Shown: positions 26,946-43,382 of the stretch, piece after piece | Layout: each line of letters begins with the position of its first letter | How positions within the stretch are numbered: the first letter of the stretch is position 1 | DNA from: Acidimicrobiales bacterium | GTDB lineage: Bacteria; Actinomycetota; Acidimicrobiia; Acidimicrobiales; Bog-793 | Assembly: GCA_049523315.1 (NCBI GenBank) | Contig: JBEKMZ010000003.1 | Location: forward strand, 14,510 to 78,509 | Direction: 5' to 3' | Length of the DNA stretch: 64,000 nucleotides | The notes under the pieces: generated by a model | Database searches by the model: none | Seen by the model: the letters and a program-made list of their open reading frames with translations, nothing else | What the model was told of the DNA's origin: nothing | Position numbers and translations under genes: made by a program

Positions 26946-26971
26946 TCGAGCCCACTCGCGTTGCCGTCAGA

Positions 26972-27640: not shown

Positions 27641-27701
27641 CGAGTTCCATGGTGGGATCGCCCTTCACAGAGCACACGCGGAGCCTCGGGAGCTCGTTCG
27701 A

Positions 27702-28136: not shown

Positions 28137-28191
28137 GTTCTCTCCTTCAGCGCGACTTGCGGGCCGACGTGTCTCTCGCGTCTTCGCCGCA

Positions 28192-30354
28192 TCACACTGT
28201 GACCCCGACACTGGGCGGCCCGACCGGCCGATAGAGTGCCTCCCCGATGAGCGAGACGATGTCGCGCACGGCGATCCGGTTCTCGGCGCGGGTCGTCTTG
28301 ACCGCCTCGGAGAACATGACCAGGTCCTTGGGGCAGGCCACGACGAATCGTCCCACGTCCAAAGAAAGGGCCTCCTTTATCCGTATCTCACTCGGGCGCT
28401 CGGAGAGGTAGCTGTCGTCCATCCAGATTCGCCCTCCACCTGCGCCGCAACAGAACGTGTCCGTGCGGTTGCGGGGCAGCTCGACGAGCTCGCAGCCGAG
28501 TGACTGCAGGATCCGGCGAGGGGCGTCGACCACGCCGTTGTAGCGCGCCAGGTAGCACGGGTCGTGATAGGTGACCCGATACCCGAGCGGCCGCACCGCG
28601 ATCTCACCGGTCTCCAACAGGCTCGCGAGCAGCTCGGTGTAGTGCCGGACCGGGTAACTAGCCCCGAGCGACGGGTACTCGTTGCGAAACGCGTTGAGTG
28701 TGTGCGGGTCGGTCGTGAAGATCTCCTCGAAATGGGCCCCGGCCAGGGCCTCGAGGTTCTGCTGGGCGAGCATCTCGAACAAACCTTCCTCGCCGACGCG
28801 CCGGACATCGTTGCCCGAATTGCGCTCCGCCTCGTAGAGGAGGCCGAAGTTGACCCCGGCATCGTGCAGGATCCTCGCCAGGAGACGGCTGGTCTCGCCC
28901 AGCCGCTCGTCGAAGCTGGCGTAGTCGCCCACGAACCACAGATACCTCACGGGCTGCTTTCGGACATCGGGGATCTGGAACTCAAGCTCACGCGTCCAGC
29001 GTCCACGTGTCCGGGCCGACTTCCCGAAGGAATTCCCCTGCGCGGCCAGGTTCTGCAGCGCCTGTTGCAAGGTGTGGTCGAGATTCCCCTCGTTGACCAG
29101 GCTCCGTCGCAGCTGGATGATCGTGGGCACCTGTTCCACCCCGACAGGGCAGACGTCCACGCAGTGCATGCACGTCGTGCAAGACCACAAAGCCCCGGCC
29201 TCGATCACCTCGCCGGCGATCCTTACGCCCTTGGCGGGCGAGAGCGGACCACTGCGCTGCGGCCTTTGCTCGCGATCGAGCAGGGTCGTCCCTCCGGCCG
29301 AGGTGTCAACCCACTGGCGCAGGTCGAGGATCAGGTCGCGCGGCGACAGTGGCGCCCCGCCGGCACGTGCCGGGCAGACGTCGTGGCAGCGGCCACACTT
29401 CGTGCACGCGTCGAGGTCCAAGAGCTCTTTCCAGGTGAAGTCCGAAATCTCCTCGTAGCCGGGGTGCTTCGGTGCTGGCGCAGCCAGCCGGAGCGTCGCC
29501 GAACGGTCCGTCGCGACCAGGTTCACCCCGTCGAGCAGCATGTGCATCGCCTTGGAGTACGGGACATAAGCGACAAAACTCAGCGCGAGCACGACGTGGA
29601 TCCACCACATGACGGTGTGGGCCCTTATCGCCTGCGCGGACGTCATGCCAAGGCCGGAGAATATCTCCGCGACCGACCGGCCGAAGGGGCTGAACACCGT
29701 GAACCAGGCCATGTGCTGGCCGAGAATGCGCAGTCCAGTCAACAGGTAGGCAGTCACGAGGATGGCCCCGAGCAGCCCCAGGAACATCCAGTCGCCCTCG
29801 ACCATGGCTCTTCTCGAATAGCCGCCCGTGGGCGTGCCTGCCCGGTCGTAGGACAGCCGCTCTGGCTTGAGCATGCCCCTGCGCACCGCCATATAAGCCA
29901 GGGCGACGAGGAACGCGAAGCCCATGGTGTCGACAGCGAAGGTGTAGACGATGAAGAACGTGCCGTGGAAGAAACTGTCCTCGTGCCCGGCGACCAAGCG
30001 TGAAGCTGTCCGGACGACGTCGGTGTCGACCGTGAGGATCACCGTCGCCATGAAAGCGACGAGGAACCCCCAGAGCATGAAAAAGTGCGCGACGCCGGTG
30101 CCCCGGTTCGCTCTCGTGACCGTCGTGCCCTTGGCGATCGAGCGCAGTCGGCTGGCGAGCGCCGCCCGGATCGTCGGTCCTCGACCCGCCGCCCGGCCGA
30201 GCCTGTACTTGCGCACGCGCCGCCAGACACCCCATGCGAACACCGCCGTCGACAGCGTCGCCAGGCAGTAGAAGATCGCCTTGCCCACAGATCCGATTCC
30301 CTCGAACAAGGGCCGGCTCACGTCGGTCGCCAGCAGACCGAGCGAGCCTGTCAC
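28192..30354 (-). CDS. Membrane-bound HdrD/DsrMK-like Fe-S oxidoreductase, ETF:(mena)quinone oxidoreductase type (Emo / EtfD-like)
   Basis: N-terminal ~300 aa with 5-6 TM helices (NarI/DsrM-like). Two ferredoxin Cys clusters (CTKCGRCHDVCP, CTTCMHCVDVCP) and two CCG domains (HDPCYLARY, FCCGAGGG). Starts 2 nt after etfA. Confidence 0.85.
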   Translation of the reverse strand: MTGSLGLLATDVSRPLFEGIGSVGKAIFYCLATLSTAVFAWGVWRRVRKYRLGRAAGRGPTIRAALASRLRSIAKGTTVTRANRGTGVAHFFMLWGFLVAFMATVILTVDTDVVRTASRLVAGHEDSFFHGTFFIVYTFAVDTMGFAFLVALAYMAVRRGMLKPERLSYDRAGTPTGGYSRRAMVEGDWMFLGLLGAILVTAYLLTGLRILGQHMAWFTVFSPFGRSVAEIFSGLGMTSAQAIRAHTVMWWIHVVLALSFVAYVPYSKAMHMLLDGVNLVATDRSATLRLAAPAPKHPGYEEISDFTWKELLDLDACTKCGRCHDVCPARAGGAPLSPRDLILDLRQWVDTSAGGTTLLDREQRPQRSGPLSPAKGVRIAGEVIEAGALWSCTTCMHCVDVCPVGVEQVPTIIQLRRSLVNEGNLDHTLQQALQNLAAQGNSFGKSARTRGRWTRELEFQIPDVRKQPVRYLWFVGDYASFDERLGETSRLLARILHDAGVNFGLLYEAERNSGNDVRRVGEEGLFEMLAQQNLEALAGAHFEEIFTTDPHTLNAFRNEYPSLGASYPVRHYTELLASLLETGEIAVRPLGYRVTYHDPCYLARYNGVVDAPRRILQSLGCELVELPRNRTDTFCCGAGGGRIWMDDSYLSERPSEIRIKEALSLDVGRFVVACPKDLVMFSEAVKTTRAENRIAVRDIVSLIGEALYRPVGPPSVGVTV

Positions 30355-30356
30355 GC

Positions 30357-31319
30357 TCAGCCCCTGATCCGGTCCACGAGCTCGGGGACGAGATCGAACA
30401 GGTCGACGGATGTCCCGTAGTGGGCGACACCGAAAATTGGGGCCGCGGGATCGGTGTTGCAGGCGATGATCAGCTCCGCGCTACGCATGCCTTCGAGGTG
30501 TTCCGGGGCTCCCGAGATCCCGAGAGCGAGGTAAACCCTCGGCTTAACCTTCACGCCCGACTGCCCCACGTGGCGAGTCTTCGGCAGCCACCCCGCGTCC
30601 ACCACAGGGCGCGAAGCCGAGAGCGGGACGCCGAGGGCATCCGCGAGCTCGAGCACGATCTCGAGGTTGTCCTGCGACTCGATGCCTCGTCCTACCGAGA
30701 CGAGCATCTCGGCCGAGGTGATGTCCACATCTCCCTCAGTCGCTTCGATCACCCGGCGTAGTGACATCCGCAGGGTATCGAGGCCGGGCGATGGAGCTAG
30801 CCCCATGAACTCTGTCGTGACTGCCTTCGGGTCGGTCGATGTGGCGCAGGCGCCGCCCATGACGGTGGCGATCACGCGCTCGCCCGCAAGTTCGACGTCG
30901 GCGAGAACCTTCCCGCCCAGCATCTGTGCAGTGGCCACGATGGCACCGTCTTCGACCCAGAGATCACTCACGTAAGCCGCCAACGACGCATTCCAGTGCA
31001 CCGCGAGCGCCGCCCCGAGATCCAGGCCCACGGTCGCGTTCGACATGAGCAAGAGACGCGGGGACCGCTCTGCCAGCACCTCCAAGAGCTCGTGCTCGTA
31101 AGCCTCCGGGATGTACTGCGACAAGACAGGGTGTTCGACGCAGACCACGACGTCGGCACCGCCGAGTTGATCGGCGAGCTCTCGCGCTCCGAGCAGCACG
31201 ACCTCGGTCGTCCCACCGAGCGCCAATGCGAGCTCACGCGCCTTGCCGATGAGCTCGTAGGTCCCGTCGGAGACTTGCGCTCCCGTGTGCTCGGCGAGAA
31301 CCATGACGTTGTCGCTCAC
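30357..31319 (-). CDS. etfA: Electron transfer flavoprotein alpha subunit
   Basis: C-terminal FAD-binding signature PRVYLALGISGAPEHLEGMRSAELIIACNTDPAAPIF. Confidence 0.9.
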   Translation of the reverse strand: MSDNVMVLAEHTGAQVSDGTYELIGKARELALALGGTTEVVLLGARELADQLGGADVVVCVEHPVLSQYIPEAYEHELLEVLAERSPRLLLMSNATVGLDLGAALAVHWNASLAAYVSDLWVEDGAIVATAQMLGGKVLADVELAGERVIATVMGGACATSTDPKAVTTEFMGLAPSPGLDTLRMSLRRVIEATEGDVDITSAEMLVSVGRGIESQDNLEIVLELADALGVPLSASRPVVDAGWLPKTRHVGQSGVKVKPRVYLALGISGAPEHLEGMRSAELIIACNTDPAAPIFGVAHYGTSVDLFDLVPELVDRIRG

Positions 31320-31326
31320 TTGATGG

Positions 31327-32118
31327 TCACCCTTTCACCAGGCCACGTGTGCGAAGCATTCCCACGATCTGCTCGGCCACTTCCCCGGCACTGCCGGCGA
31401 GCATCTCGGCCTGACCCGTCCTCTCGGGTAGGTGCAAGCGGCGCACGAGCACCTCGGTTCCCGCCGATGCCACTGGTGAGACGGCCCTCTCCTCGATGGA
31501 GCCGGACTGCATGGCCTGTTTGATCCGACTGATCGGGGCGTAGCGCGGGACCTGGCGAGCGGACTGGACACCGATCACTGCAGGCATCTGCACCTCCAGC
31601 TCGTGTGACCGCCCGGCCGCGAACTCCTGTCGGACAATTATCGAGCCGCCCTCGGCCTCGATGCTCACGACCACCGACACGTGTGGGAGGCCAACGAGCG
31701 CGGCCAGCCTGGAGGGCAGCTGGCCGTCGGGGTCGTCACAGGCCTGCACGCCGGTGATCACCAGGTCGGCCGGCTCGGTCGCCAGGTATCCCGCCAGAAG
31801 GCGTGCCCGCTCGGACAGTTTGATTCCCGCTCGGAGCGGTTCTTTCCCGCTCGCGTCGGCGAGCTTGACCGCCGTGTCCGCTCCCTTGGCGAGCGCGGTG
31901 TAGAGGATCTGGTCGACCTCGGGGTCCGCGGCCATTCCGAGCGCGACCACCTCGGCCCCGTTCGCGTCCTTGATCAGCAGGGCCTCTTCGAGAGCCTGCG
32001 CGTCCCACTCGTTGACCACGAAGCTCAGATACTCCCGGTCGATCCCGGCCCCGTCCGCGGTTAGCTCGATCTCCTCCACGAGATCTGGCACCGCCTTCAT
32101 AGGCACCACGATTCGCAC
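31327..32118 (-). CDS. etfB: Electron transfer flavoprotein beta subunit
   Basis: MRIVVPMKAVPDLVEEIEL...NEWDAQALEEALLIKD is typical of EtfB/FixA. Confidence 0.9.
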   Translation of the reverse strand: MRIVVPMKAVPDLVEEIELTADGAGIDREYLSFVVNEWDAQALEEALLIKDANGAEVVALGMAADPEVDQILYTALAKGADTAVKLADASGKEPLRAGIKLSERARLLAGYLATEPADLVITGVQACDDPDGQLPSRLAALVGLPHVSVVVSIEAEGGSIIVRQEFAAGRSHELEVQMPAVIGVQSARQVPRYAPISRIKQAMQSGSIEERAVSPVASAGTEVLVRRLHLPERTGQAEMLAGSAGEVAEQIVGMLRTRGLVKG

Positions 32119-32119
32119 C

Positions 32120-33226
32120 TCAGCTCACCTCTCTACGCTCTTGTTTGACGAGATCGCCCAACCGCAGCTGCTCGCGGATCTCCTCGAGATCGCTCTCGGT
32201 GGGCGCAAACGGATAGTCACGGAAGGCCTCCGTGGGCCGGTACGACCCGTACGGCCTCGTGCAGCCCGGTGAGTGATCTTCGCCCGGGCAGCCGTTTGTC
32301 ATGAACGCCGTCGCGTCCGTGACGACTGCCTCGAGGGCGCCGTGGGGCGCCCGGACACACGCGATCCCGCCTTGCTCGTCGAAGCCGAAGCTCCCCAGCT
32401 CGTAGCCTTCGGTCTCGATCAGATGCCTGGCGAGCTGCAGCCTGCGCCACCGGCGCAGAGGCGGCTTCGGCTGTGACGCCATGCGCGAGCCCGGCTCCGG
32501 ATTGAAACAGAAAAGGTAGGAAAAGACCTCCCGGTCCCGCAGCTGGACGAACAAGGAGACCAGGTCGCGATCGGTCTCACCGAGACCCACGAGGGTGTGC
32601 ACGTTGACCTTCCAGGGCCCGAAGATCTCCCGGGCGTCGGTCACGATCTCCCAGTACTTGTCCCACCTGAGCCCGCCAGCGGGGACGTCTGTGCGGGTGC
32701 TCGCGAATAGTTCCTCGGTTACGGCATCGAGTCCGACGCCGATCATGTCGACGCCAATCGACTTGAACTCTTCGAGCCCCCGTCGTTTGAGCGTCGGCGG
32801 CGCAACGAGGATCGATATCGGCGTCCCGACGCGCGCAGCGATCCAGCGGGTGATGTCGCAGGTGTCGCGGTACGCCCGGCCGTGGGTGACCATCGAGATG
32901 CAGACCCGCGTGAGGGCCGGCTCGAAACGCGCCATGCGCTCTACGAGCTCATCGGTGCGCACAAGCGGCCACTCGACCCTGATGAACGACTTGTCCTCGT
33001 AGTTGCCCGGGCGGCTCCGGGCGAGCCCGCAGTAGCCGCAGCCCGAGCGGCACCCCTCATCGTAATTCAGAAGGATGTTGATGCCACCGAACTCGAAGTC
33101 TCGACCGAACCGGCCCGAGCGCATCCGCAGTGCGATAGCGCTCGCCATGGAAACTCTTACGTACTCCGGGCTGGTTCGTGTCACGGCGAGCGCTGACGGC
33201 GTGAATGGGACTTGGCGGACGGCCAC
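32120..33226 (-). CDS. Radical SAM protein, LipS1/LipS2-type (biotin/lipoyl synthase-like sulfur insertion)
   Basis: CRSGCGYCG (CX3CX2C) cluster motif and a TIM-barrel-like length. It is embedded between lipoate ligase and etf genes. I cannot say from sequence alone which LipS paralogue it is. Confidence 0.75.
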   Translation of the reverse strand: MAVRQVPFTPSALAVTRTSPEYVRVSMASAIALRMRSGRFGRDFEFGGINILLNYDEGCRSGCGYCGLARSRPGNYEDKSFIRVEWPLVRTDELVERMARFEPALTRVCISMVTHGRAYRDTCDITRWIAARVGTPISILVAPPTLKRRGLEEFKSIGVDMIGVGLDAVTEELFASTRTDVPAGGLRWDKYWEIVTDAREIFGPWKVNVHTLVGLGETDRDLVSLFVQLRDREVFSYLFCFNPEPGSRMASQPKPPLRRWRRLQLARHLIETEGYELGSFGFDEQGGIACVRAPHGALEAVVTDATAFMTNGCPGEDHSPGCTRPYGSYRPTEAFRDYPFAPTESDLEEIREQLRLGDLVKQERREVS

Positions 33227-33319
33227 GTCGCCTGCCCTTAGCTCGGATCGGTGGGCGCGGGTGCGCCCGGAGCGACCGGCGCTCCGACGAAGGAAGCGGA
33301 GCCCGCGGCCCGAACCGGC

Positions 33320-34384
33320 TCAGGCATCGGAACCTCGCGAGCTTGCGCCCGCCTCAATGATGATCTCGACGAGCTGCGCGGCGCTGACGCCGAGCGCGTC
33401 GGCCGCACCCGAGCGGGCAACCACGTCAAGGACAGAGGCGTGATCGAGGCGCCGCCAGCGCAGTCCCGACTCCATGGCCGCCATTTCGGGCGGCAGCTCG
33501 TTGAAGTCCCCGACCACCATCGCGCTCTTCACGAGCCCGCAGTGGGTGGCGAGATAGATCCTGGCAAGCCCGGCCGGCGTCTTCAACATCGCCGAGCCGC
33601 TGGCGTCGTCGGCAACGCTCCGCTCGTCGAGCCAGGACTGTGACCCGTAACGGCTGATGGCGAGGGCATTCGCGAGGGCCTCCTCCTCGGCGTCTACAAG
33701 GGCGGGGTCGAGATCCACTTCGAAGCCCGATTCGAAGCCCTTCGCGATGAAGGGTCGAATCCTCGCCGCGTCCCAGACGGAGCCCGTCTCGGCGGACACC
33801 GTCGTGATGCGCTCGCTCACGGCTGCAACGGCCCTATCGGCCAGCTTGGCTGCTGGTATCCGTAGCACCTCAAGCATGAGCCCGACGTCCAGGTGGGCGA
33901 GAACGCTCGCGTGGAAGATCATCGCTCCGGCCTCGTCGACATACAGGCCCAGCCCGGCGATCTTGCGACCGGCGACCTCGAGGTCGTTCTTGCCATGAAA
34001 GCTCGCCGTGATGCCGAGTTCGGCGAGACCTGCTACAAGCCCGTTCGCGAGCGCCGCGATGGTCTCCCGGGGGCGCTCACCAGCACGACACCTGTCCAGG
34101 TACGCGACGCCCAGCTGTCCGGCGCCCATCACGATGGCGCCGCCGCCGGTCAAGCGTCGGCTGACTTGCGTGTCGGTGCGGCGGCAAGCGGCGAGATCGA
34201 CCTCGGCGTTCAGGTTCTGGTATCGGCCGATCAGCGCGCAGTGGTCCCGATAGCTATACAGCCGGAGCGTCGGCGCGCTCTTCTGTGCCTCGTGGCGATA
34301 ACGGGCCATGAGGGCCTCGTCGAGGGCAAGGCCCTCCGCGGCGCCGACACCGTCATCGGCCAAGAGCCGCCATGCTCCGCTCAC
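33320..34384 (-). CDS. Lipoate-protein ligase family protein (LplA-like, copy 1)
   Basis: BPL/LplA/LipB catalytic pattern: LRLYSYRDHCALIGRYQN, SRRLTGGGAIVMG, AGRKIAGLG. The GTG start overlaps the upstream stop (GTGA). Confidence 0.85.
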   Translation of the reverse strand: MSGAWRLLADDGVGAAEGLALDEALMARYRHEAQKSAPTLRLYSYRDHCALIGRYQNLNAEVDLAACRRTDTQVSRRLTGGGAIVMGAGQLGVAYLDRCRAGERPRETIAALANGLVAGLAELGITASFHGKNDLEVAGRKIAGLGLYVDEAGAMIFHASVLAHLDVGLMLEVLRIPAAKLADRAVAAVSERITTVSAETGSVWDAARIRPFIAKGFESGFEVDLDPALVDAEEEALANALAISRYGSQSWLDERSVADDASGSAMLKTPAGLARIYLATHCGLVKSAMVVGDFNELPPEMAAMESGLRWRRLDHASVLDVVARSGAADALGVSAAQLVEIIIEAGASSRGSDA

Positions 34385-35361
34385 GATCCCACCTTCACCG
34401 CGTTGAAGCGGCTCTCGGATTCCCCGCTCCAGGTGAGAGAACAGCAGTACTCGAAGAGCCTCGGCGTCAGACCGCGCGACCTCGCGTACTCGATGGCGCC
34501 CTCGGCCGGATAGGCGATGCCGTTCAGGCCCAGGTCGATGGCGGCCTCGTCGAGCTCGCGCTTTTGGGCGCCGAGCGGGCGTGCACAGCCGAGGTTGATG
34601 CTGGTCGAGGGAACTGCGAGGCGAGCGGTAGCAAAGAAGTCCGTGACCTGGTCGACCGGCGGCGGTGCCAGATGCTCCATCGGCGTGCCGACGAGCGGCA
34701 CGAGCACCACCAGGATCAGGGTCGACACCTGGTACTGGGTAAGCATCTCCAGCGCTCGATGCTCGCCCAGAAACTGGCCATAATGCAGCCCGAGCACGAT
34801 GTGGGGCAAGATCCGCAGCCCATGGTCGGAGAGGAGCTGCAGGGACCGGCCCACGTCGACGACGGTGAGGTCCAGGTGGTAGACGTCGCGCAGCGTCTCG
34901 TCAGCCCCTACGACATCGAGCATGACACCGTCGACGCCCGATGCCGCCAAACCCTCGGCGAGCTCTGGTGAGACGAGGCCCGAATGAACGATGACCTTCA
35001 TTCCGAGCTCTTCACGAATCCGCGGGACGTGGCGCAGATGTCCCAACAGCGGCACCGCTCCGTAGCGTGTCGAGCCGCCGGAGACGAGTATCCCCTCGCT
35101 TCCCTGCTCACGGAGCTGTGCCGCGAGATCGAACAGGTCGCTGCCCGCCCTTACCGAGACCATGCCGCCCAGCACCTTGGCCTGACAGTGGTCGCAACAA
35201 AGCGCGCACGCCCTGCCCGTGACCGACACCGCCAAGAAACGGCGCGAGCTCGCGGGGACCCACTCAGAGGTCTGCCAGCGCTTAAGGCCCGGGGCGTAGA
35301 AGTCCATCACGTCGGGGAAATTCGACCGCCGCAGCGCGCTGGGCGATGCCGCCGTCGTCAT
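34381..35361 (-). CDS. Radical SAM protein, LipS1/LipS2-type (second paralogue)
   Basis: Cys cluster VTGRACALCCDHCQ. 326 aa with GG-rich SAM-binding stretches (ILVSGGS). Sandwiched between a GcvH-like gene and a ligase gene. Confidence 0.7.
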   Translation of the reverse strand: MTTAASPSALRRSNFPDVMDFYAPGLKRWQTSEWVPASSRRFLAVSVTGRACALCCDHCQAKVLGGMVSVRAGSDLFDLAAQLREQGSEGILVSGGSTRYGAVPLLGHLRHVPRIREELGMKVIVHSGLVSPELAEGLAASGVDGVMLDVVGADETLRDVYHLDLTVVDVGRSLQLLSDHGLRILPHIVLGLHYGQFLGEHRALEMLTQYQVSTLILVVLVPLVGTPMEHLAPPPVDQVTDFFATARLAVPSTSINLGCARPLGAQKRELDEAAIDLGLNGIAYPAEGAIEYARSRGLTPRLFEYCCSLTWSGESESRFNAVKVGS

Positions 35362-35822
35362 TCGGCGATGATCCCGCGAAGGCGGTAGCCGGCGATCTTG
35401 GCGGCGAACCAGGCGGTCACCTCAGCAGGGTCGCTGAGCAGCCCATCAAGTTGAGCGCCTTCCGAGCTCACGCTCGCCTCGATCAACCAGCCCTCGCCGT
35501 ACGGGTCCCGCTCGGCCAGGCCCGCGTCGAGTGCCACCGCCTCATTCACGGCTTCCAGCGCACCGGAGACCGGGCTCAAGAGCGGGCCGACGAACTTGGC
35601 GGCTTCGAGCTGACCGAACGGCCGGCCCGCGCTGAGATTGGTCCCTATCGCGAGGAAGGACAGCTGTGCCAAGGTGCCACTCGTCTCGATGCCGAGCGGG
35701 TCCATGCCGATCCTCACCCGACCCGACCCGCTCACGAGCACCCACATGTGCGACTCTGGCTCATAGCACCTGTCGAGTGCGAGCGGGAAGCCTTCCACCA
35801 AGATGAGCTCAGCCTCTCCCAT
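35358..35822 (-). CDS. GcvH-like lipoate-binding protein (LbpA type, second copy)
   Basis: HMWVLVSGSGRVRIGMDPLG...GQLEAAKFVGPLLSPVSGALEAVN...DPYGEGW. The lipoyl-Lys lies in LEAAKF. Confidence 0.8.
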   Translation of the reverse strand: MGEAELILVEGFPLALDRCYEPESHMWVLVSGSGRVRIGMDPLGIETSGTLAQLSFLAIGTNLSAGRPFGQLEAAKFVGPLLSPVSGALEAVNEAVALDAGLAERDPYGEGWLIEASVSSEGAQLDGLLSDPAEVTAWFAAKIAGYRLRGIIAE

Positions 35823-36850
35823 CAGAGCCTCCCTGGATCTGCGGCCGCGAAGACTGCGGCCACGCGGCGAGCCGGCTCACCGAAGCCGGCTAGCACTTCT
35901 GCGGCAGAGCGCAAAGGGACCCCGGTGAGGGCGTCCTCGACATGTCGGATCGATCCATTGAGTCCCGGGTCGTGCAGCCGCACCTTGTCGAGCGTTCCCC
36001 GGACGACGCTGGCGCTGACACTCGCACTCTTCCAGGCCGCGGCGAACGTCCAGACCCCGGCGCGCACCTTCACTTGTCGCGCTCTCGGAGCGGCGTCGCC
36101 TGCCGAAGACGGCCGGTTCGGGCCCGCAAGCCATTCCTCCGCCTCGAACGTCTCGTCAAGCTCGGCGAGAGTCGTCTCCTCGCTGACGGTCAACTTTCCA
36201 GCGCCGGGGACGAGGCCTAGTGCGGAGCCGTACGCGCTCGTCAACCCAGCCTGGAAAACGGCCGGATCAACCGGGGTCGCATTGACGAAACGGCGCATCA
36301 GCGCCAGCGTCTGATCGCGCTGGTTCCGATCGGCGAGGGCTAGCACCCTAGTCGCCCGGTCATGGTCGAACCGCTCGATCAAGTTCCCGCACACCACGAC
36401 CGCGTCTTCGATCTGACCTGCTCCGTGCCCGCAGATCTTGGCCTCTCCGACGCAGATCTCCATCTCCTCGTCGAGCACAGCTGGCACCCCGGCCGATCGA
36501 AAGGCCGTGACGGCCGGTTCGAGCAGCAAGCGCAGCGCCTCGCGCCGAGCCTGCGGCACGGCGCGAGCTGGCAGGCAAATCTGGAACAGAAGCTGGTCCC
36601 GGTCCAGATAGACCGGACCTCCGCCCACCATCCGACGCAAGATCGGCAGACCCTTCTTGCGGCAGTATTCGTGGTCCAGCTCTTCCACCTGGCGGTGGTA
36701 GCCGAGGCAAACGTACGGAGCCGCCGGGCGGGTGAACGACAGCGTCGCCGGAGCACCCGCCGAGACTCCGTGAGCTATCGCATGCCAAAGGGTCTGGGAG
36801 CGCAGCGGCGAGCAGCTGCCAGAATCGATGACGCGCAGCGGCTCAACCAT
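35822..36850 (-). CDS. Lipoate-protein ligase family protein (LplA-like, copy 2, divergent)
   Basis: YVCLGYHRQVEELDHEYCRKKGLPILRRMVGGGPVYLDRDQLLFQI and GEAKICGHGAGQI follow the LplA catalytic-domain pattern. A ~120-aa C-terminal accessory domain is present. Confidence 0.75.
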   Translation of the reverse strand: MVEPLRVIDSGSCSPLRSQTLWHAIAHGVSAGAPATLSFTRPAAPYVCLGYHRQVEELDHEYCRKKGLPILRRMVGGGPVYLDRDQLLFQICLPARAVPQARREALRLLLEPAVTAFRSAGVPAVLDEEMEICVGEAKICGHGAGQIEDAVVVCGNLIERFDHDRATRVLALADRNQRDQTLALMRRFVNATPVDPAVFQAGLTSAYGSALGLVPGAGKLTVSEETTLAELDETFEAEEWLAGPNRPSSAGDAAPRARQVKVRAGVWTFAAAWKSASVSASVVRGTLDKVRLHDPGLNGSIRHVEDALTGVPLRSAAEVLAGFGEPARRVAAVFAAADPGRL

Positions 36851-38150
36851 CCTGCGTGCCCCCGCCCATCGCCTCGTCGACGAGCTCTATGACATCGCAC
36901 ACCCTGAGCTCCTCGTGACCGGTCGCCTTTGCTGCATCGCTGAAACGCGAGACCTCATAAGGACAGCAGACCGCCAGCACATCGGCGCCGGTCTGAGCAG
37001 CCTCGCGGACCCTGCGCTCGGAGAGCCTCTCGGTCGTGTGGTCCCGCGTGAAACCGTCCAACCACATGCCGCCGCCCCCCCCTCCGCAGCAATAAGCGTT
37101 CTCCCGGCAGCGGCTCATCTCGACCAGCTCCAGACCCGGAATCGCCTCCAACAAGGCCCGGGGGGCGTCGTACTCGCCGTTCTGCCTGCCCAGGTAGCAG
37201 GGATCGTGGAACGTCACCTTCGCTCTCAGCTCCCTCGCCCATCGGATATGGCCGACGAGCGGAGCGAGGAGCTGTGTGTAATGCAGCGCGGCAAATTCGT
37301 GGCCGCGCCTAGGGTACTCGTTGACGAAGGCGTTAAAAGCGTGGGGATCGGGTGTCACGATCCGCTCGAACTGGTATTTCGACAGCACCGCCGCCACATC
37401 TTCGACCAACGCGTCGAACAAGCCCCTCTCCCCGGCGAGCCGTTGCGAGTCCCCGAGCGTCTTCTCCTCCGGACCGAGGATCGCCCAGTCGAGACCAAGG
37501 GCGGAGGCCACTCTGGCGAATGCTCGGGCGGCGTCCTGGCCACGGGGGTGGAAGCTCCAATAGTCCTCCACATAGAAAAGGACATCCACGGGCCCTGGCT
37601 GTTTGCCGAGGATCCTCACCGGGACGCCGGCGCTGTCTGCCCATTGTGCCCTACGTCGCTGGTTCTGGCCGAGCGCATTGCCGTGCCGGAAGGTCTTCTC
37701 CAAGACGTCTTGCAGTTCGCCGGGCACCTGCGTGCCGGCCAAGGCGGCCTCGCGCATGGCCGGCATGATCGAGATCATGTCGACCGCCTTGGGACAGACC
37801 CGCAGGCAGTTCCCGCAGGTGGTGCACAGCCAGAGGTCGGCGTCGGCCAACAGCTCGGTGCCGGTCTGGACCTTGCGGTGGATCTTGCGCGGGCCATAGT
37901 CCCCCACCATGTCGACCGGGCAGACCGCGTCGCACTTGCCACAGCCGAAGCACCACTCCAGGGACTCTCCGCCCGAGAGGGCTGAGATCGAGGCGAAACC
38001 GTCCGGGCCATAATCGGTGAGAACTCGAGGCTCGAACATCCGGTTCCACATCCCCGGCAGGTCCACCTCGCGTCCGGAAAGTGTCGATGCGACCGTCACC
38101 TGCTCTTTCTCCAGCGCCACGGGCGGGACCTTCCGGCCACTTACGGGCAC
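36843..38150 (-). CDS. Soluble HdrD-like protein (HdrC-type 2x[4Fe-4S] fused to HdrB-type CCG domains; sHdrB3-like)
   Basis: CFGCGKCDAVCP and CTTCGNCLRVCP, then HDPCYLGRQ and YCCGGGGGG. No TM segment. Its core is clearly paralogous to the C-terminal part of the membrane protein at 28192..30354. Confidence 0.8.
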   Translation of the reverse strand: MPVSGRKVPPVALEKEQVTVASTLSGREVDLPGMWNRMFEPRVLTDYGPDGFASISALSGGESLEWCFGCGKCDAVCPVDMVGDYGPRKIHRKVQTGTELLADADLWLCTTCGNCLRVCPKAVDMISIMPAMREAALAGTQVPGELQDVLEKTFRHGNALGQNQRRRAQWADSAGVPVRILGKQPGPVDVLFYVEDYWSFHPRGQDAARAFARVASALGLDWAILGPEEKTLGDSQRLAGERGLFDALVEDVAAVLSKYQFERIVTPDPHAFNAFVNEYPRRGHEFAALHYTQLLAPLVGHIRWARELRAKVTFHDPCYLGRQNGEYDAPRALLEAIPGLELVEMSRCRENAYCCGGGGGGMWLDGFTRDHTTERLSERRVREAAQTGADVLAVCCPYEVSRFSDAAKATGHEELRVCDVIELVDEAMGGGTQDG

Positions 38151-38153
38151 GGC

Positions 38154-38906
38154 CTAGGCCTCCGGCCCTTGAACGCCGAGCAGGCGGCGGACGATGTCGG
38201 GCAGCGACGGGATGACCCGGGTGAACTCGCGGGTCACACGCATCTGCAGGATCGTGTGCATGTACACCCCGTACACAACGGCCATGAGGACATCCATCCC
38301 GAACAAGCCAGCACCAGCGACGGAGAACCCGGCCGCCCTACAGGTCTCCTCGGCAAAGGCCGTCGCCCGACCGACGCTCATGTAGACCGCACCCCTCGTG
38401 GCTCCCGGGCTGCGCTCGAGTTCACAGTTGGTCAAAAGGCCTAGCGCCCCGGTTCCCGCGCCAGGGTCCCAGATCCACCTGGTCCATAACCAGTAACGCG
38501 CGGGCTGGGTGAAGTGCAGCAGCTCTGCTGGGAGATCGATCCCGGCGCCTGATAGCTCGCCTATTGAGCCGTCACCGCCGAGCGTGGCGTCGAAAAGGTC
38601 GATCCGCTCCGCCACCGGCGCGCCTGCATCGAGGAGCCGAGCGATCGCCCCTGCAAGTCGCTCGGGTCCGACAGCATCGACGATCCGGTCCGCGCGCCTT
38701 CGAGTTGCGAATACCCAACGCAGCACTTCGCGCAGCTCGGCGCGATCGAGCTGCGACGGGTCGTCTGACAAGAGCCCGCGAAGCGAAGCGGCCTTGCGCT
38801 GCAGGCCGGCAGTGATCACCAGCAGGTCGCTCTCGCCGATTCGGTCCATCGCCTCGCGTTGGAGATCCAGCGCGGTCGGGCTGGCGACAACGGGACCGGT
38901 GACCAC
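38154..38906 (-). CDS. Conserved hypothetical protein in the sHdrH position
   Basis: 250-aa soluble ORF between the hdrA-like and HdrD-like genes, which is where shdr clusters carry 'hyp/sHdrH'. I have no motif I can name, so the assignment is positional only. Confidence 0.5.
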   Translation of the reverse strand: MVTGPVVASPTALDLQREAMDRIGESDLLVITAGLQRKAASLRGLLSDDPSQLDRAELREVLRWVFATRRRADRIVDAVGPERLAGAIARLLDAGAPVAERIDLFDATLGGDGSIGELSGAGIDLPAELLHFTQPARYWLWTRWIWDPGAGTGALGLLTNCELERSPGATRGAVYMSVGRATAFAEETCRAAGFSVAGAGLFGMDVLMAVVYGVYMHTILQMRVTREFTRVIPSLPDIVRRLLGVQGPEA

Positions 38907-38918
38907 GAGATCGTCGCC

Positions 38919-40013
38919 TCAGCTCGTCGCCGCGACTGCGCGCGAGCGTAGGTAGCCGAGGGCCCTGACTGCGGCACCGGCCGCAGACGAGACGGTGTCC
39001 TCGAGATCGGCCGGGCCGAGCGCCGCCCCGCAGGCAAAGATCCCTTCGCGATCGGTGCTGACCGGGTCGAGCGGCGCGCCGACCGCTTCGATGAACCCAT
39101 ACCGGTTCTGTTTAACCCCGAGCAGTCCCGAGAGCTCGCGTGTCCCGGGAGACGGCTCCATACCGACCGACAGCACTACGAGGTCCATCAGAACCTCCAT
39201 CGGCCGCCCCATCGTGGTGTCCTCGCCCCGCACAAGCAAGCGATCACCTCGCGGCAGCACCTCGGTGATCAGGCCCTTCACGTACTGGACATGGTGCTGT
39301 TCTTGTGCCGGCCAGTAGATCTCGTTCTCCCAGTACCCGTACATGCGCATGTCGATGTAGAAGATGAGCACCTTCGACTCGGGCAGCAGCTCACGGATCT
39401 CGATGGCCTCTTTAGAGGCCACGCCGCAGCAGACCTTGGAGCAGTACTCGTTGCCGATCTGACGGTCACGACTGCCGACGCACTGGACGAAGCAAATCCG
39501 CTCCGGCATCTGGCCGTTGGAGGGACGTAGGACCCGGCCCTGCGAGAGCATCGCCTCGAGATCAGCCTGAGTGATGACGTCGGGGAACTCGTAGTAGCCG
39601 TACATCTGCGGCGAGCGCCCCGGGTCGAAGTGGCCGAACCCGGTGGCGATGATTATCGCTCCGCACTCAATTCGCTCCGCGCCTGGCACAGCTTCGCCGA
39701 CCCGGCCGTCGATCGACGACGAGCGCAAGCCCAGGGTGAACGCCCCCGGCTCCCGCGTCAGTTCTGCAAGCTCGGTGGCGACGCGGACCTCGATGAGCGG
39801 GCTGGAGGTGACCTCGTTGATCATCCGGAGGATCTGAGGCTGGGCGGGTTCACCGCGTGGCGTAAGTCCGCAGTAGTTCTCCGCGACCGGGGTCCCACCG
39901 AGGAACTCGCGTCGCTCTATCAGCACCACCCTTCCGCCCATCTCTGCGATGCAGTTCGCCGCACGCAGACCGCCTGGTCCCCCACCGATGACCACAACCG
40001 TGTCAGAGGACAT
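38919..40013 (-). CDS. HdrA-like FAD-dependent oxidoreductase (sHdrA)
   Basis: FAD fingerprint VVVIGGGPGGLRAA and the HdrA Cys motif CFVQCVGSRD...YCSKVCC. Confidence 0.85.
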   Translation of the reverse strand: MSSDTVVVIGGGPGGLRAANCIAEMGGRVVLIERREFLGGTPVAENYCGLTPRGEPAQPQILRMINEVTSSPLIEVRVATELAELTREPGAFTLGLRSSSIDGRVGEAVPGAERIECGAIIIATGFGHFDPGRSPQMYGYYEFPDVITQADLEAMLSQGRVLRPSNGQMPERICFVQCVGSRDRQIGNEYCSKVCCGVASKEAIEIRELLPESKVLIFYIDMRMYGYWENEIYWPAQEQHHVQYVKGLITEVLPRGDRLLVRGEDTTMGRPMEVLMDLVVLSVGMEPSPGTRELSGLLGVKQNRYGFIEAVGAPLDPVSTDREGIFACGAALGPADLEDTVSSAAGAAVRALGYLRSRAVAATS

Positions 40014-40021
40014 CTCTCACC

Positions 40022-41278
40022 TCAATCGTCGTGCTCGAACCTGGCATCGGATACCTGATGGGCGCTCTTGTCATGCTCACCATCCGCGTCGTCCCAGTCG
40101 AGATACTGCTTCTCGCCTGTCTCTAGCCGACGCAGGTCGCTCTGGAACTCCGCCCAGGCGCGTTCCCAATCGATGCCCATCTTCTCTAGCAGCGGCCGGT
40201 AGTCGGCCGAGTGCCAATGCAGTTGGCAAACGCGGTAAGGATGAGCGCCCATAGCCAAGGCGGCGAACTGCGCGTCACTGAGCACGGCGAGCCCGACGTT
40301 GCGCTCGTGCGCCTGCGCCGCGAACTGACTCTTGTCCAGGGTGGTCACGCACCCGGTGTCGTGAGTCAGCACGACGTCGGGGTTCGCCTCCTGTTTCATG
40401 ACCTCGATCTTGCGCAGCGTGGCAAAGGACCTCGTGAAGTCTCGCTGCACCAAGATGTGCCTGAAGCCGAAGCCGCAGCAATCGAACCAGGTCGAGTAAT
40501 CGCGCACCTCGGCACCAAGCGTCTCCGCCAGGGCAGTTACCACGGCGGTGCGTTGGCCCCCGTAGAAATCCTCGTCGTAGATCGCGTCGGCCGAGACGAT
40601 CTTGTAGTAGTGGCAGGCGGGATGGACTGTCACGACAATTCCCGACATGTCGCGGACCTGCTTTGCAGCGATCTCGTCACGCAGGGCGTGGAACCACTCC
40701 GAATAATGGACGATCTCCTCCGGCACCACGAGCGGCTTGCCGAGCTTGGCCATGATCTCGCGGACTTGAGCCCGTAGCTCCGGGTGCCGTATGAGCTGTT
40801 CCCGCACTTCTTTGTAGTGCCCGTACGACGTGCCGCAGTGGATGAGCGGGAAATAGCCCGTCTCGTAGGCCGCGGCGAAATTGCGCACGGCAACAGCAGC
40901 CTGGGCAGCAGTGTTGGAGGTGGCGCTCGCGTAGTAGTTCCAAGCCGTACAAGAGGTTTGGTCGTGCGGGTCGTGGTAGTCGTAGCCGAGCTTGCGCATC
41001 ACCCAAAAAATGGACGTGGAATAACCAGGGATGTGGCCACACTGACCGCAGGACTTGTGGTGCCACAGGTGTGCCTTTTGGATCCTCTTCACGCGCCCGT
41101 ATTTCGTCACCACCTCGATCGCTTCCTGATCGATCCTCTGCACTATCAGCTCGCCCTGACGCTCCAGCTCGAGCAGCTCGGTGCGCGGATCCTCGAGCGA
41201 CCGCCGGTCCGGAACCGTCTCGGCAGCTGGCTTGACGCGCCTACGGGCGTCGATCGGAGCCGCTATGGGAACTGTCAC
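40022..41278 (-). CDS. HdrB-like CCG-domain protein (sHdrB1)
   Basis: The GTG at 41278 overlaps the hdrC1 stop (GTGA). Cys-rich CCG-type segments: HHKSCGQCGH, TSCTAWNYY, FDCCGFGFRH, HDTGCVTT. The longer 484-aa ORF is an over-extension into hdrC1. Confidence 0.8.
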   Translation of the reverse strand: MTVPIAAPIDARRRVKPAAETVPDRRSLEDPRTELLELERQGELIVQRIDQEAIEVVTKYGRVKRIQKAHLWHHKSCGQCGHIPGYSTSIFWVMRKLGYDYHDPHDQTSCTAWNYYASATSNTAAQAAVAVRNFAAAYETGYFPLIHCGTSYGHYKEVREQLIRHPELRAQVREIMAKLGKPLVVPEEIVHYSEWFHALRDEIAAKQVRDMSGIVVTVHPACHYYKIVSADAIYDEDFYGGQRTAVVTALAETLGAEVRDYSTWFDCCGFGFRHILVQRDFTRSFATLRKIEVMKQEANPDVVLTHDTGCVTTLDKSQFAAQAHERNVGLAVLSDAQFAALAMGAHPYRVCQLHWHSADYRPLLEKMGIDWERAWAEFQSDLRRLETGEKQYLDWDDADGEHDKSAHQVSDARFEHDD

Positions 41279-42009
41279 AGCTCGATACCTTCTTCCTCGA
41301 GGCGCTCCTCCATCAGCTCTTGCAGGATCGAGTGCAAGCCGCTGTCGATTCCCGCGATCATCTCCAGGGCACCGGTTTCGAACCAGATGACGTAGAGCTC
41401 GAGCAGGGTCTTGTCTGCCACGGACCAGCCAGCCGATGTCGTGTGCATGGTCTCTGGAGGCAGCGCCCGGCGCCACAGGTCCAGGTTGTCCGCCACATCA
41501 CCCGTCTCGGGTCCCCAGTCCGGGAACGCCTCCGGTCGCAGCATGTCTGGCGAGACCTGCGTCCCGGTCGACATGATCTTGTAGATGATCCGCGAGTAAC
41601 CGACGAGCGCCGCCTTCGCCGAGGCGAGCCCGTTGTTCACGGCCACCTCCCGCATGATCGTGATGATCCCCCCGGGGTTATTGCCTCGCGGGCAGCGCAG
41701 ACACGAGAAGCACTGGGAGCACTCCCAGATGTCTTCCTGCATCTGCTGGTAGACGAGCTCCACGTCTTCACGTGCGGCAGCCTGCGCGACCCGGCGCGGG
41801 CTGAAGTCGTAGAACTTGGCCGACGGACAGGCGGCGACGCAAATGCCGCACTCATAACAGCCGTACAGGTAATCGGCGAAGCGGAGGTCGCCTTTCACCT
41901 GCTCGAACAGCTTCGCCTTGGTCTCGTACGGCACTTCGGTGTAGCCGGCGACTTCTGGGGCCTTGTAATAAGGGTCCGTCTTGGCCTGGGTGGCGGCTGT
42001 GACGGTCAT
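41275..42009 (-). CDS. HdrC-like 4Fe-4S dicluster protein (sHdrC1)
   Basis: CYECGICVAACP and CSQCFSCLRCPRGNNP ferredoxin motifs. Confidence 0.8.
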   Translation of the reverse strand: MTVTAATQAKTDPYYKAPEVAGYTEVPYETKAKLFEQVKGDLRFADYLYGCYECGICVAACPSAKFYDFSPRRVAQAAAREDVELVYQQMQEDIWECSQCFSCLRCPRGNNPGGIITIMREVAVNNGLASAKAALVGYSRIIYKIMSTGTQVSPDMLRPEAFPDWGPETGDVADNLDLWRRALPPETMHTTSAGWSVADKTLLELYVIWFETGALEMIAGIDSGLHSILQELMEERLEEEGIEL

Positions 42010-42017
42010 CGCGGTGC

Positions 42018-42401
42018 CTAAAAGCTGATCACGGCGTCAGCGGTGGCCGCGAGGTCGTTGAAGGCTGCGCCCCCGATCACCTCGACCCCATCGATCAGGT
42101 CGTTGAGGCGCAGATCGTTCAAGTCGAGTGAGGGCTGGCAGACCAAGAGCCGGACGCCGAGCCCGGTGGCCTGTTCGATGAAGTATCGCAAGGGCTGGCC
42201 CTGGTCGCCCTTCGGCCCGATCTTGTCGACAACGTCCTTTCGAAGCAGGGTAGGCCCGTACATCGTGAAATAGATCATGACCTCGAACTCCATCGCCGCC
42301 GCGGAGGCCGCGAGGAAAAATGGAGTCGCGCTCCGGCCCGGGTCGTCCGCTCCATGGGTCTGGACGTAAAGGATCTTTGTCTCAGAGTCTTCGGCCCACA
42401 T
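42018..42401 (-). CDS. DsrE family sulfurtransferase (DsrE3-like)
   Basis: 127 aa. DsrE fold pattern KILYVQTHG...EVMIYFTMYG...RLLVCQPSLD, with the active-site Cys in VCQ. Confidence 0.8.
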   Translation of the reverse strand: MWAEDSETKILYVQTHGADDPGRSATPFFLAASAAAMEFEVMIYFTMYGPTLLRKDVVDKIGPKGDQGQPLRYFIEQATGLGVRLLVCQPSLDLNDLRLNDLIDGVEVIGGAAFNDLAATADAVISF

Positions 42402-42410
42402 GAATGCTTC

Positions 42411-42659
42411 CTACTTCACTCGGCGGATGAGGACGTGGAAGACGTCCGCCTGCTTGGTGATGCCGAGAAGCTCATTGCCGGTGCGGCTGGCCCAGGCCCG
42501 CATGTCAGGCTCGACCCCCGCATCGGTGGCGAGTAGCTCGAGAACCTGCCCGGGGGCGAGATTCTTGATCGCCTGGGCGGTCTTCACGACCGGCAGCGGA
42601 CATGCCAACCCGACGCAGTCAAGCACCTGGTCTGCGGCTGGAGTCGCGGACTCGGGCAC
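42411..42659 (-). CDS. tusA: TusA-family sulfur carrier
   Basis: LDCVGLACPLPVVKT (the CPxP motif). The GTG at 42659 is preceded by AGGAGG 6-11 nt upstream. The longer ORF overlaps cysE and is not needed. Confidence 0.85.
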   Translation of the reverse strand: MPESATPAADQVLDCVGLACPLPVVKTAQAIKNLAPGQVLELLATDAGVEPDMRAWASRTGNELLGITKQADVFHVLIRRVK

Positions 42660-42678
42660 AACATCCTCCTTTTGAGTT

Positions 42679-43380
42679 TCAGATCGAGAAGTCTTCGCCG
42701 GACCAGACTCCGGCTTTGGACGGACGAACGTCATGACGATCCCGGTGGCCGTCGACCAGCATCTCCAGCTCGTCGACACGCGCCAGAAGCGACTGGAGGC
42801 TGGAGCCGAGGAGGTCGGGCATGAATGCCGACTCGAGATCGGGCCGGTCCGTGGCCCGATGAGGGCGGCTCCGGGCGATGATCTGACCGGGCACACCGAC
42901 TACGACCGAGTTCGCGGGAACAGACTTCACGACGACGGCATTGGCGCCGATGCGGCTGTCGTCACCGATTGTGATGGGCCCGAGGACCTTGGCCCCAGCG
43001 CCGATCGTCACACGGTTCCCCACCGTCGGGTGACGCTTCACCCGGTCGAGGCTCGTGCCGCCAAGGGTGACGCCCTGGTAGATGGTGACATCGTCACCCA
43101 CCTCAGCCGTCTCGCCGATGACCACACCACTAGCATGGTCGATGAACACACCCTGGCCGAGGATGGCTGCGGGGTGGATCTCGACCCCGGTCAGCCATCG
43201 TGCCAGCGCGGCAGCTGCACGCGCGACGAGCTTGAAGTCTTTCCGCCACAACGAATGACAGATTCTGTGGCTCCAGAGTGCGTGCACGCCCGAGTAGCAG
43301 ATCGCGATCTCGAGCGAGGAGCGCGCGGCGGGGTCACGGTCGCGCGCTGAGATCAGATCGCGCCGCAGGGTGGAGAGCAT
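42679..43380 (-). CDS. cysE: Serine O-acetyltransferase
   Basis: SATase N-terminal helices ([25 protein letters not shown]) and hexapeptide repeats ([32 protein letters not shown]). Confidence 0.92.
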
Positions 43381-43382
43381 GC

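Follow-up and report, generated by a model that had tools for sequence, protein, structure and literature searches.

A probable type II sHdr-LbpA sulfur oxidation cluster with an EMO/EtfD homologue, lying within a family 2A encapsulin operon of an Acidimicrobiales bacterium

The 64,000-nucleotide (nt) stretch of Acidimicrobiales DNA analyzed here (GenBank assembly GCA_049523315.1, contig JBEKMZ010000003.1, positions 14,510 to 78,509; hereafter, the window) carries a minus-strand gene block that is probably a type II sHdr-LbpA cluster, which would oxidize sulfane sulfur to sulfite and pass the electrons through sHdrB3, the electron transfer flavoprotein (ETF) EtfAB, and an ETF:(methyl)menaquinone oxidoreductase (EMO) to menaquinone. 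Type I clusters have the gene set shdrC1B1AHC2B2 and type II clusters the set shdrC1B1AHB3-etfAB-emo, sHdrB3 being a fusion of C2 and B2 with a place for only a single noncubane cluster (Tanabe et al. 2024, PMC11094781). Type II, reported for 130 GTDB assemblies that include many Actinobacteriota (PMC11094781), is recognized operationally by shdrC1B1AHB3 together with etfAB in one syntenic cluster (HMSS2; PMC11094781; also PMC11582611).

In the window, shdrC1, shdrB1, shdrA, shdrH, and shdrB3 occupy one syntenic cluster, with etfA and etfB following shdrB3 at a distance of 4.7 kb, also on the minus strand, and with emo in the same cluster. The accessory genes comprise two GCV_H genes, two LplA-like genes, two radical SAM genes, one TusA gene, and two DsrE-family genes, and the sHdrB3 protein has two CxxCxxCxxxC motifs, one scored CCG stretch, and no first-site cysteine. 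The first-pass annotation of this DNA had recognized a type II shdr gene set; since the operational definition describes what is present, that interpretation is the published one. The ETF route to the quinone pool that it proposed agrees with the ETF-to-EMO-to-menaquinone route put forward for type II, as relayed by PMC11094781 from Kumpel et al., and is a proposal in both places.

A total of 21 genes run along the minus strand from 44321 to 24118, no gap between them exceeding 199 nt and several stop/start pairs overlapping (Table 1). Matches to Pfam and NCBIfam give the order cysK, cysE, tusA, dsrE, shdrC1, shdrB1, shdrA, shdrH, shdrB3, an Lpl-like gene, lbpA, a radical SAM gene, a second Lpl-like gene, a second radical SAM gene, etfB, etfA, emo, a second lbpA, a second dsrE, a family 2A encapsulin shell gene, and a cysteine desulfurase gene. 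The ends of the interval 28192 to 42659 coincide with the emo stop codon and the tusA start codon, respectively. Every gene that the first-pass annotation named lies at the minus-strand coordinates it assigned, and the peptides it quoted are present in the translations, but its tusA-to-emo operon passed over the five lipoate and LbpA genes between shdrB3 and etfB (32120-33226 and 33320-36850), and the gene set also continues past emo with the second lbpA and the second dsrE. In line with its remark that a single soluble protein stands in place of separate hdrC2 and hdrB2 genes, tblastn searches of the 64-kb window with the cluster's own proteins detected no further HdrB- or HdrC-like genes. 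The shdrH gene, which matches no Pfam or NCBIfam model, was assigned by position and from orthologues elsewhere among type II clusters; wherever a related locus extends far enough, an orthologue with 31 to 66% identity stands at the same position. All matches of the sHdr and EMO proteins to NCBIfam fall below cutoff in a collection that holds no sHdr-subunit or EMO models, and a classing of sHdrB3 and Emo by NCBIfam was dropped because both scored alike against TfrB.

The core genes and their order are those of the type II clusters described from Sulfobacillus, Chloroflexota, Actinobacteriota, and others (Justice 2014; Cao 2018; Kumpel 2024; Tanabe 2024, PMC11094781), with which the window also shares the one-noncubane-site sHdrB3, etfBA and emo, TusA and DsrE, LbpA, and dedicated lipoylation genes. 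There is no essential difference from these known clusters; the window block is embedded in an encapsulin operon. The type I clusters of Hyphomicrobium denitrificans, Aquifex, and Acidithiobacillus have C1, B1, A, H, LbpA, lipoate assembly, and sulfur transferases in common with the window, but they differ in having separate C2 and B2 genes, two noncubane sites in B2, no ETF, and no membrane partner. The window thus adds one more Acidimicrobiales example of a cataloged system, and its value is mainly confirmatory; only a modular quartet of electron transfer genes and the encapsulin embedding, both treated below, go beyond what we found described.

The 720-amino-acid (aa) membrane protein encoded by emo is an EMO/EtfD homologue by sequence and by its structural model, with a predicted oxidoreductase activity. 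Its phmmer match to Mycobacterium smegmatis EtfD (PDB 9OJN) extends over both the transmembrane and the soluble parts. In an AlphaFold model built with 32 homologues (mean pLDDT, 72), the transmembrane N terminus noted in the first-pass annotation resolves into five helices, at residues ~22-51, 81-122, 131-162, 182-212, and 239-266, which form the NarI-like, cytochrome b-like five-helix membrane domain of EMO/EtfD proteins. The best Foldseek match of the model is again 9OJN, over its full length (E = 2.5e-27; TM-score, 0.65), followed by HdrB, LutA, and NarI chains, the last with a probability of 1.0.

The ligands listed in the EtfD paper (PMC13083937) were mapped onto Emo through the phmmer alignment with 9OJN, and conservation was read from 32 homologues with 61 to 80% identity. 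The heme b ligands H78 and H241 of EtfD correspond to H90 and H271 of Emo, the quinone-site phenylalanines F85 and F230 to F97 and F260, the heme-propionate arginines R137 and R306 to R159 and R322, and the eight cysteines of the two cubane clusters to C317/320/323/327 and C392/395/398/402. The heme-ligand mapping suggested by the first-pass annotation therefore recovers the H90/H271 pair and, in addition, the third histidine of the family, H253, which is equivalent to H223 of the M. smegmatis EMO (MsEMO) and to H233 of the Syntrophus aciditrophicus EMO (SaEMO). At the linear [3Fe-4S] site, the EtfD cysteines C503, C538, C581, and C584 are replaced by D477, N512, D549, and T552, so that the cluster of the first CCG domain has no cysteines in Emo. 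The second, noncubane site of EtfD (C637, C672, C673, C709, and H583) is retained as C600, C635, C636, C674, and H551, but the fifth cysteine, C712, is D677 in Emo; the five-Cys-plus-His set of EtfD D2 is therefore reduced to four cysteines and His551, with an invariant aspartate at the fifth position. Except for the variable T552 and for N512, which at least 90% of the 32 homologues keep, all of these residues, including H253 and D677, are invariant in the set. Emo has one more invariant cysteine, Cys621. Pfam scores a single CCG stretch (594-676), and Emo departs from methanogen HdrDE, which consists of an HdrE cytochrome and an HdrD subunit and has two catalytic noncubane sites, in being a single polypeptide with one cysteine-bearing site.

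Emo and M. smegmatis EtfD have in common the five-helix membrane domain, the heme b histidine pair, the quinone-site phenylalanines, two cubane clusters, the histidine ligand of the noncubane site, and an ETF partner. EtfD differs in its linear [3Fe-4S] cluster on four cysteines, its fifth noncubane cysteine, and its beta-oxidation context, and Emo differs in the extra Cys621, the lack of a disordered C-terminal tail of ~265 residues, and the sulfur oxidation context. With SaEMO, in which ETF docks on the domain of the noncubane clusters, Emo shares the three-domain architecture and the three conserved histidines; a reverse redox loop is driven in SaEMO by a pair of noncubane clusters ([4Fe-4S] and [4Fe-5S]) together with three hemes, whereas Emo can hold only one such cluster. 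The third histidine, idle in M. smegmatis EtfD, is a ligand of the distal twin heme in the Syntrophus EMO, and in the Syntrophus EMO:ETF complex EtfB docks with the flavin positioned for transfer to the noncubane clusters (10.64898/2026.08.18.745454). The loss of the first site has a precedent in Bacillus subtilis FadF and Pseudomonas DgcB, which are EtfD homologues without first-site cysteines, depend on ETF, and are considered to accept electrons at the second site; in view of this precedent, the authors of the EtfD study proposed that ETF feeds the second site directly (PMC13083937). Compared by description, these two proteins differ from Emo in serving fatty acid and dimethylglycine catabolism, respectively. 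The two structural studies of EMO/EtfD proteins (2025-2026) are thereby applied to a sulfur system, in which the residues that hold hemes and clusters can be predicted.

The soluble protein sHdrB3, which has no hydrophobic segment, has the same reduced design. In searches of the PDB, it matched EtfD 9OJN at E = 3.4e-48 and methanogen HdrC at ~1e-17, with no match to HdrB at E ≤ 0.01. Residues 51-428 of sHdrB3 align with residues 299-707 of Emo at 34% identity (E = 6e-70), which bears out the paralogy between the soluble and the 720-aa proteins asserted in the first-pass annotation. The relationship holds at the level of the superfamily; a special closeness of sHdrB3 to its own Emo does not, as this pair scores 233 bits against 213 to 271 bits for the EMOs of other organisms. 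Similarly, the two CCG domains attributed to each protein are present as folds, but cysteines are kept in only one CCG domain per protein.

The four first-site positions that are cysteines in EtfD read D/T/D/A in sHdrB3 and D/N/D/T in Emo. Among 128 members of the sHdrB3 family, the eight ferredoxin cysteines, C318, C354, C355, C396, and E399 are invariant, and E399 aligns with C712 of EtfD; the histidine aligned to H583 of EtfD is kept in every sHdrB3 and sHdrB3-like sequence examined. Close relatives nearly always have two further cysteines, C348 and C395, which are lost in distant ones. Because both proteins lack first-site cysteines, keep the histidine, and have the last cysteine replaced by an acidic residue, the two HdrD-like proteins of type II clusters share a one-site design, and their residues point to a putative noncubane-type cluster with an unusual ligand set in each. 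The cysteine replaced by the invariant acidic residue (D677 in Emo and E399 in sHdrB3) is the last of the CxnCCxnCxxC motif of EtfD and HdrB.

Loss of the emo-shdr linkage, combined with a grouping of the 720-aa protein with fatty acid oxidation EtfD proteins, had been named in the first-pass annotation as one outcome that would refute its reading; the linkage is conserved. We read the surroundings of emo in 28 relatives above ~41% identity, consisting of 22 loci found by scanning GTDB species representatives with Emo plus loci L023, L024, L105, L107, L108, and L112. All 22 GTDB loci belong to Actinomycetota (54 to 80% identity), and in each of them emo adjoins etfBA and shdr or lipoate genes. 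Across the full set, which spans Actinomycetota, Gemmatimonadota, Bacteroidota, and Acidobacteriota at 41 to 80% identity, emo is combined with shdr genes in 28 of 28 loci. The closest database relatives of the window are metagenome-assembled Acidimicrobiales; an identical Emo occurs on one JGI contig, and other Acidimicrobiales Emo proteins are 75 to 80% identical. The window order recurs in the cultured Saccharomonospora marina XMU15 and in a metagenome-assembled genome (MAG) of Gemmatimonadota, and the distant Emo relatives (41 to 48% identity) from a Bacteroidota MAG, an Acidobacteria MAG, and one other MAG also lie in type II clusters.

For the ETF and the membrane protein, an ordinary module of fatty acid or amino acid oxidation, of the EtfD or FadF kind, that merely adjoins the shdr genes is a very improbable explanation. 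Emo does belong to the same superfamily as mycobacterial EtfD and, like FadF and DgcB, is without the first noncubane site, but the block contains no acyl coenzyme A (acyl-CoA) dehydrogenase gene, and chance adjacency would have to recur in all 28 loci from the four phyla.

Three of the loci carry a gene for a Rieske-domain protein after the shdr/emo block (S. marina [L023], 14551-15219; the Gemmatimonadota MAG [L024], 14141-14893; the Acidobacteria MAG [L108], 12099-12767), which is not found in the window. Locus L108 also has a 495-aa class V aminotransferase gene between shdrB3 and etfB (600-2087), considered as a second link to a desulfurase and dropped when its Aminotran_5 protein gave no match to the window desulfurase at E = 1e-6.

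The phylogeny of the HdrD-like cores proposed in the first-pass annotation was run in a limited form, as a neighbor-joining tree, without support values, of the core shared by the 150 nearest representatives, drawn from a search with sHdrB3 of 1.8 billion cluster representatives. It shows three groups: an sHdrB3 clade, a large membrane protein subclade with the D-N-D...D signature that includes the window Emo, and a subclade with four first-site cysteines, as in EtfD. In this tree, sHdrB3 is not nested in its own Emo lineage. Three loci encode a free-standing quartet of an sHdrB3-like protein, EtfB, EtfA, and EMO with the same residue signatures (L109, 8188-14212; L110, 855-5880; L111, 10001-15008), with no shdrC1, shdrB1, shdrA, shdrH, tusA, dsrE, or lbpA at these loci. 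The quartet of L110 adjoins HdrA-like, MvhD-like, and NiFe-hydrogenase genes, and in L113, a short contig that starts inside etfA, the etfA-EMO pair adjoins HdrA-like and MvhD-like genes. From the quartets that occur without an shdr core, we infer that sHdrB3, EtfB, EtfA, and EMO constitute one transferable electron exit module, which in type II is paired with the C1B1A(H) core. If so, sHdrB3 belongs with ETF and EMO as part of a portable exit module and not with the Hdr core. The length of the sHdrB3-like protein of L109 (P0242) had suggested a membrane-anchored sHdrB3, which was rejected because its N terminus is an HTH_11/WCX regulator-like domain.

The sequence of events in the window system would then be as follows. 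Judging from the literature on the family, persulfide sulfur would reach the sHdrC1B1A(H) core from TusA and the DsrE proteins, and the core would work together with lipoylated LbpA, for whose maturation the mid-operon lipoate genes would serve. Oxidation of protein-bound sulfane sulfur to sulfite would take place in the cytoplasm, at sHdrB1 with LbpA. Electrons would leave through the single noncubane-type cluster and the two cubanes of sHdrB3 to the flavin adenine dinucleotide (FAD) of EtfAB, and ETF would dock on the homologous soluble domain of EMO, from where one noncubane-type cluster, two cubanes, and heme b (His90/His271) would carry the electrons to menaquinone. We propose that ETF shuttles between two homologous docking domains, one on the soluble donor side and the other on the membrane-bound acceptor side.

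The two LbpA genes and the full lipoylation set retained in the operon also fit a scheme in which the electrons are shared, with dihydrolipoyl-LbpA reoxidized by a lipoamide dehydrogenase encoded elsewhere to give NADH, as proposed for type I, and the remainder leaving by sHdrB3, ETF, and EMO. The first-pass annotation had likewise allowed for a route to quinone "as well as NAD+." We consider a division of the electrons in this manner unlikely; no gene for a dihydrolipoyl dehydrogenase occurs among the cluster genes or the 10 neighboring open reading frames scanned.

An sLpl(AB)-LipS1/S2 pathway goes together with shdr-lbpA clusters (PMC10332631), and the lipoate genes of the window are consistent with it. 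In the proteobacterial clusters, LipT comes with a single ligase gene (PMC10332631), whereas the window has two ligase-like genes, encoding proteins of 342 and 354 aa, and no LipT. The arrangement with two ligases and no LipT is also seen in S. marina and in the Gemmatimonadota MAG.

LipT is the likely electron donor in the proteobacterial (type I) lipS1-slpl(AB)-lipT-lipS2 clusters (PMC10332631), and the window block, L023, and L024 all lack a LipT-like FAD oxidoreductase, whose place EtfAB and EMO might take, working in reverse or for another client and moving electrons from quinol or another donor to the radical SAM lipoyl synthases. The etfB gene does start 1 nt after the second radical SAM gene. 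We nevertheless consider this replacement of LipT quite unlikely. The lipoate genes lie between shdrB3 and etfB in the window, S. marina, and the Gemmatimonadota MAG, but etfBA-emo directly follow shdrB3, with no lipoate genes intervening, in L019, L107, and L112, and the free-standing quartets occur without any lipoate genes. Moreover, radical SAM enzymes need low-potential electrons, for which a membrane quinone enzyme would be an odd source.

Several points weigh against the exit of electrons from sulfur oxidation through sHdrB3, ETF, and EMO to menaquinone, or qualify its details. For type II systems in general, the direction of electron flow and the roles of sHdrB3 and LbpA are all inferred. 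By their closest PDB matches, EtfB is nearest to a nonbifurcating ETF and EtfA to bifurcating ones. Asp677 stands where EtfD has its fifth cysteine ligand, so that the Emo cluster may be of a different type, and with C348 and C395 nearly invariant and Glu399 present, the sHdrB3 cluster could be catalytic and not a pure relay. Because the third histidine is kept in EtfD, which has no distal heme, Emo may have either one heme, as in M. smegmatis, or three, as in Syntrophus, and the membrane side on which quinone is reduced would depend on this number. Support for the module comes from three loci and from an unbootstrapped neighbor-joining tree.

The shell and the desulfurase encoded directly after the block are, judged by their sequences, a bona fide family 2A encapsulin system: in the disordered N terminus of the desulfurase, LTRIASEFFAS and GAPSFYFIEE match both published cargo motifs (PMC8049743). 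Family 2A operons are of the type (rhodanese)-(serine acetyltransferase)-Enc-CD, where Enc is the shell and CD the cysteine desulfurase (PMC8049743, PMC10836720), and the window resembles them in its SrpI-like shell, its two-motif desulfurase, and its upstream serine acetyltransferase gene. It differs in that no rhodanese gene occurs among the operon genes, that cysK is present, and that a 15.7-kb sulfur oxidation block with TusA and DsrE, from tusA to the second dsrE, lies between the acetyltransferase gene (cysE) and the shell gene (enc).

For comparison, 576 metagenome loci with a gene for a relative of the shell protein were found, and the best 80 of them were surveyed. In most of the surveyed loci, cysE adjoins the shell gene, either directly upstream, often with cysK before it, or divergently together with cysK. 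The split arrangement recurs in another species, represented by L105 together with L032, and L105 has the same cysK-cysE-tusA junction as the window. The adjacency of the block to the shell and desulfurase genes (enc-CyD) recurs in L002, L006, L008, L010, L014, L028, and L030. The four loci with the closest shells (90 to 93%) carry cysK, a remnant of cysE (the first 71 to 81 codons), ~250 to 300 bp, and enc-CyD. In these block-less loci, DNA homology to the window ends at 43138 and resumes between 26819 and 26811, which, together with the cysE remnant, looks like a deletion of the block. The reverse loss is seen in L003, from an Acidimicrobiaceae MAG, in which the shdr block is kept and is followed after dsrE by only the C-terminal third of the desulfurase gene (13707-14263), with no shell gene; this looks like the deletion scar of the encapsulin half. 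The block and the encapsulin halves can each be lost independently.

A functional link between encapsulin and shdr genes is plausible, resting on their adjacency within one bacterial family. A more specific proposal is that the insertion site of the shdr block is not random and that the block is wired into the 2A operon (cysK-cysE/tusA...dsrE/enc-CyD). Sulfane sulfur that the encapsulated desulfurase produces from cysteine, possibly kept inside the shell in elemental form, would be taken up by TusA/DsrE and oxidized by sHdr, and its electrons would pass through ETF and EMO to menaquinone; we regard this as a tentative possibility and doubt it at present. How encapsulin-stored sulfur is remobilized has been stated to be unknown (PMC10836720), and SoxT importers are reported to be absent from type II genomes (PMC11582611). 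If the proposal were true, the encapsulin sulfur store would gain a means of remobilization and an energy-yielding outlet, and type II sHdr organisms without known SoxT importers would gain an internal source of sulfur. A sulfur oxidation block inside the operon of a sulfur-storing nanocompartment, in one bacterial family, thus bears on how stored sulfur is remobilized. Our literature search found no paper combining encapsulins with sHdr or DsrE.

Table 1. Genes of the minus-strand block in the window, listed in the direction of transcription (positions are those of the window)
Feature	Position	Strand	Evidence and remarks
cysK-cysE, directly 5' of tusA, 5' part of the split encapsulin operon	42679..44321	-	Pfam PALP E = 1e-75; Hexapep E = 1e-14
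tusA, sulfur carrier, 82 aa	42411..42659	-	Pfam TusA E = 1.4e-21; GTG start at 42659 with AAGGAGG ribosome-binding site; L105 orthologue also 82 aa
dsrE-family sulfurtransferase, 127 aa, single Cys88	42018..42401	-	Pfam DsrE/DrsE_2; NCBIfam DsrE2 below cutoff
shdrC1	41275..42009	-	Pfam Fer4_8; NCBIfam HdrC E = 3.6e-22, below cutoff; two CxxCxxCxxxC-type motifs (Cys 51, 54, 57, 61 and 97, 100, 103, 106)
shdrB1, HdrB-like CCG protein	40022..41278	-	Pfam CCG E = 7.9e-11; NCBIfam HdrB E = 1.1e-37, below cutoff; GTG start overlaps shdrC1 stop
shdrA, short HdrA-like Fe/S flavoprotein, 364 aa	38919..40013	-	Pfam Pyr_redox_2; NCBIfam HdrA/HdrA2 E = 1e-69, residues 113-356 only; cluster motif Cys174, 178, 191, 195, 196
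shdrH, conserved hypothetical protein, 250 aa	38154..38906	-	No Pfam/NCBIfam match
shdrB3, soluble HdrC+HdrB-like fusion, 435 aa	36843..38150	-	Pfam Fer4 and one CCG stretch, 312-397
Lipoate:protein ligase-like gene 1, 342 aa	35822..36850	-	Pfam LplA-B_cat E = 5.7e-22; position kept in related loci
lbpA1, GcvH-like lipoate-binding protein	35358..35822	-	Pfam GCV_H E = 4.7e-19; below NCBIfam GcvH cutoffs
Radical SAM protein, LipS1/LipS2 type	34381..35361	-	Pfam Radical_SAM; context like sLpl(AB)-LipS1/S2 pathway (PMC10332631)
Lipoate:protein ligase-like gene 2, 354 aa	33320..34384	-	Pfam LplA-B_cat E = 4.4e-35
Second radical SAM protein, LipS1/LipS2 type	32120..33226	-	Pfam Radical_SAM E = 1.6e-14
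etfB	31327..32118	-	Pfam ETF; best PDB match M. methylotrophus ETF beta 1o94_C, E = 1.9e-32
etfA	30357..31319	-	Pfam ETF and ETF_alpha; best PDB matches CarE and LctC, E = 4e-46
emo, predicted ETF:(methyl)menaquinone oxidoreductase/EtfD homologue, 720 aa	28192..30354	-	PDB 9OJN E = 3e-76
lbpA2, GcvH-like lipoate-binding protein, 144 aa	27702..28136	-	Pfam GCV_H E = 2.5e-33; ATG start at 28136 with ribosome-binding site
Second dsrE-family gene, DrsE_2, 176 aa, last of shdr block	26972..27502	-	Pfam DrsE_2 E = 9e-45; 72 to 98% identity in related loci
Family 2A encapsulin shell, directly 3' of block	25853-26794	-	Pfam SrpI-like E = 9e-104
Cysteine desulfurase, predicted cargo	24118-25878	-	Aminotran_5 E = 4e-144

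The G+C content of the window is 62 to 70%. A scan of positions 25200-45100 for promoters and terminators returned counts equal to the shuffled expectation and is therefore uninformative on transcription units. After the desulfurase gene, on the same strand, positions 22510-24102 encode a 530-aa multipass membrane protein with no Pfam match, whose position is kept in L028 and L030 at ~60% identity. At the other end, a gene for a CHASE-GGDEF-EAL signaling protein (45008-47599) diverges from cysK across a 686-bp intergenic region, which probably holds the promoter of the operon.

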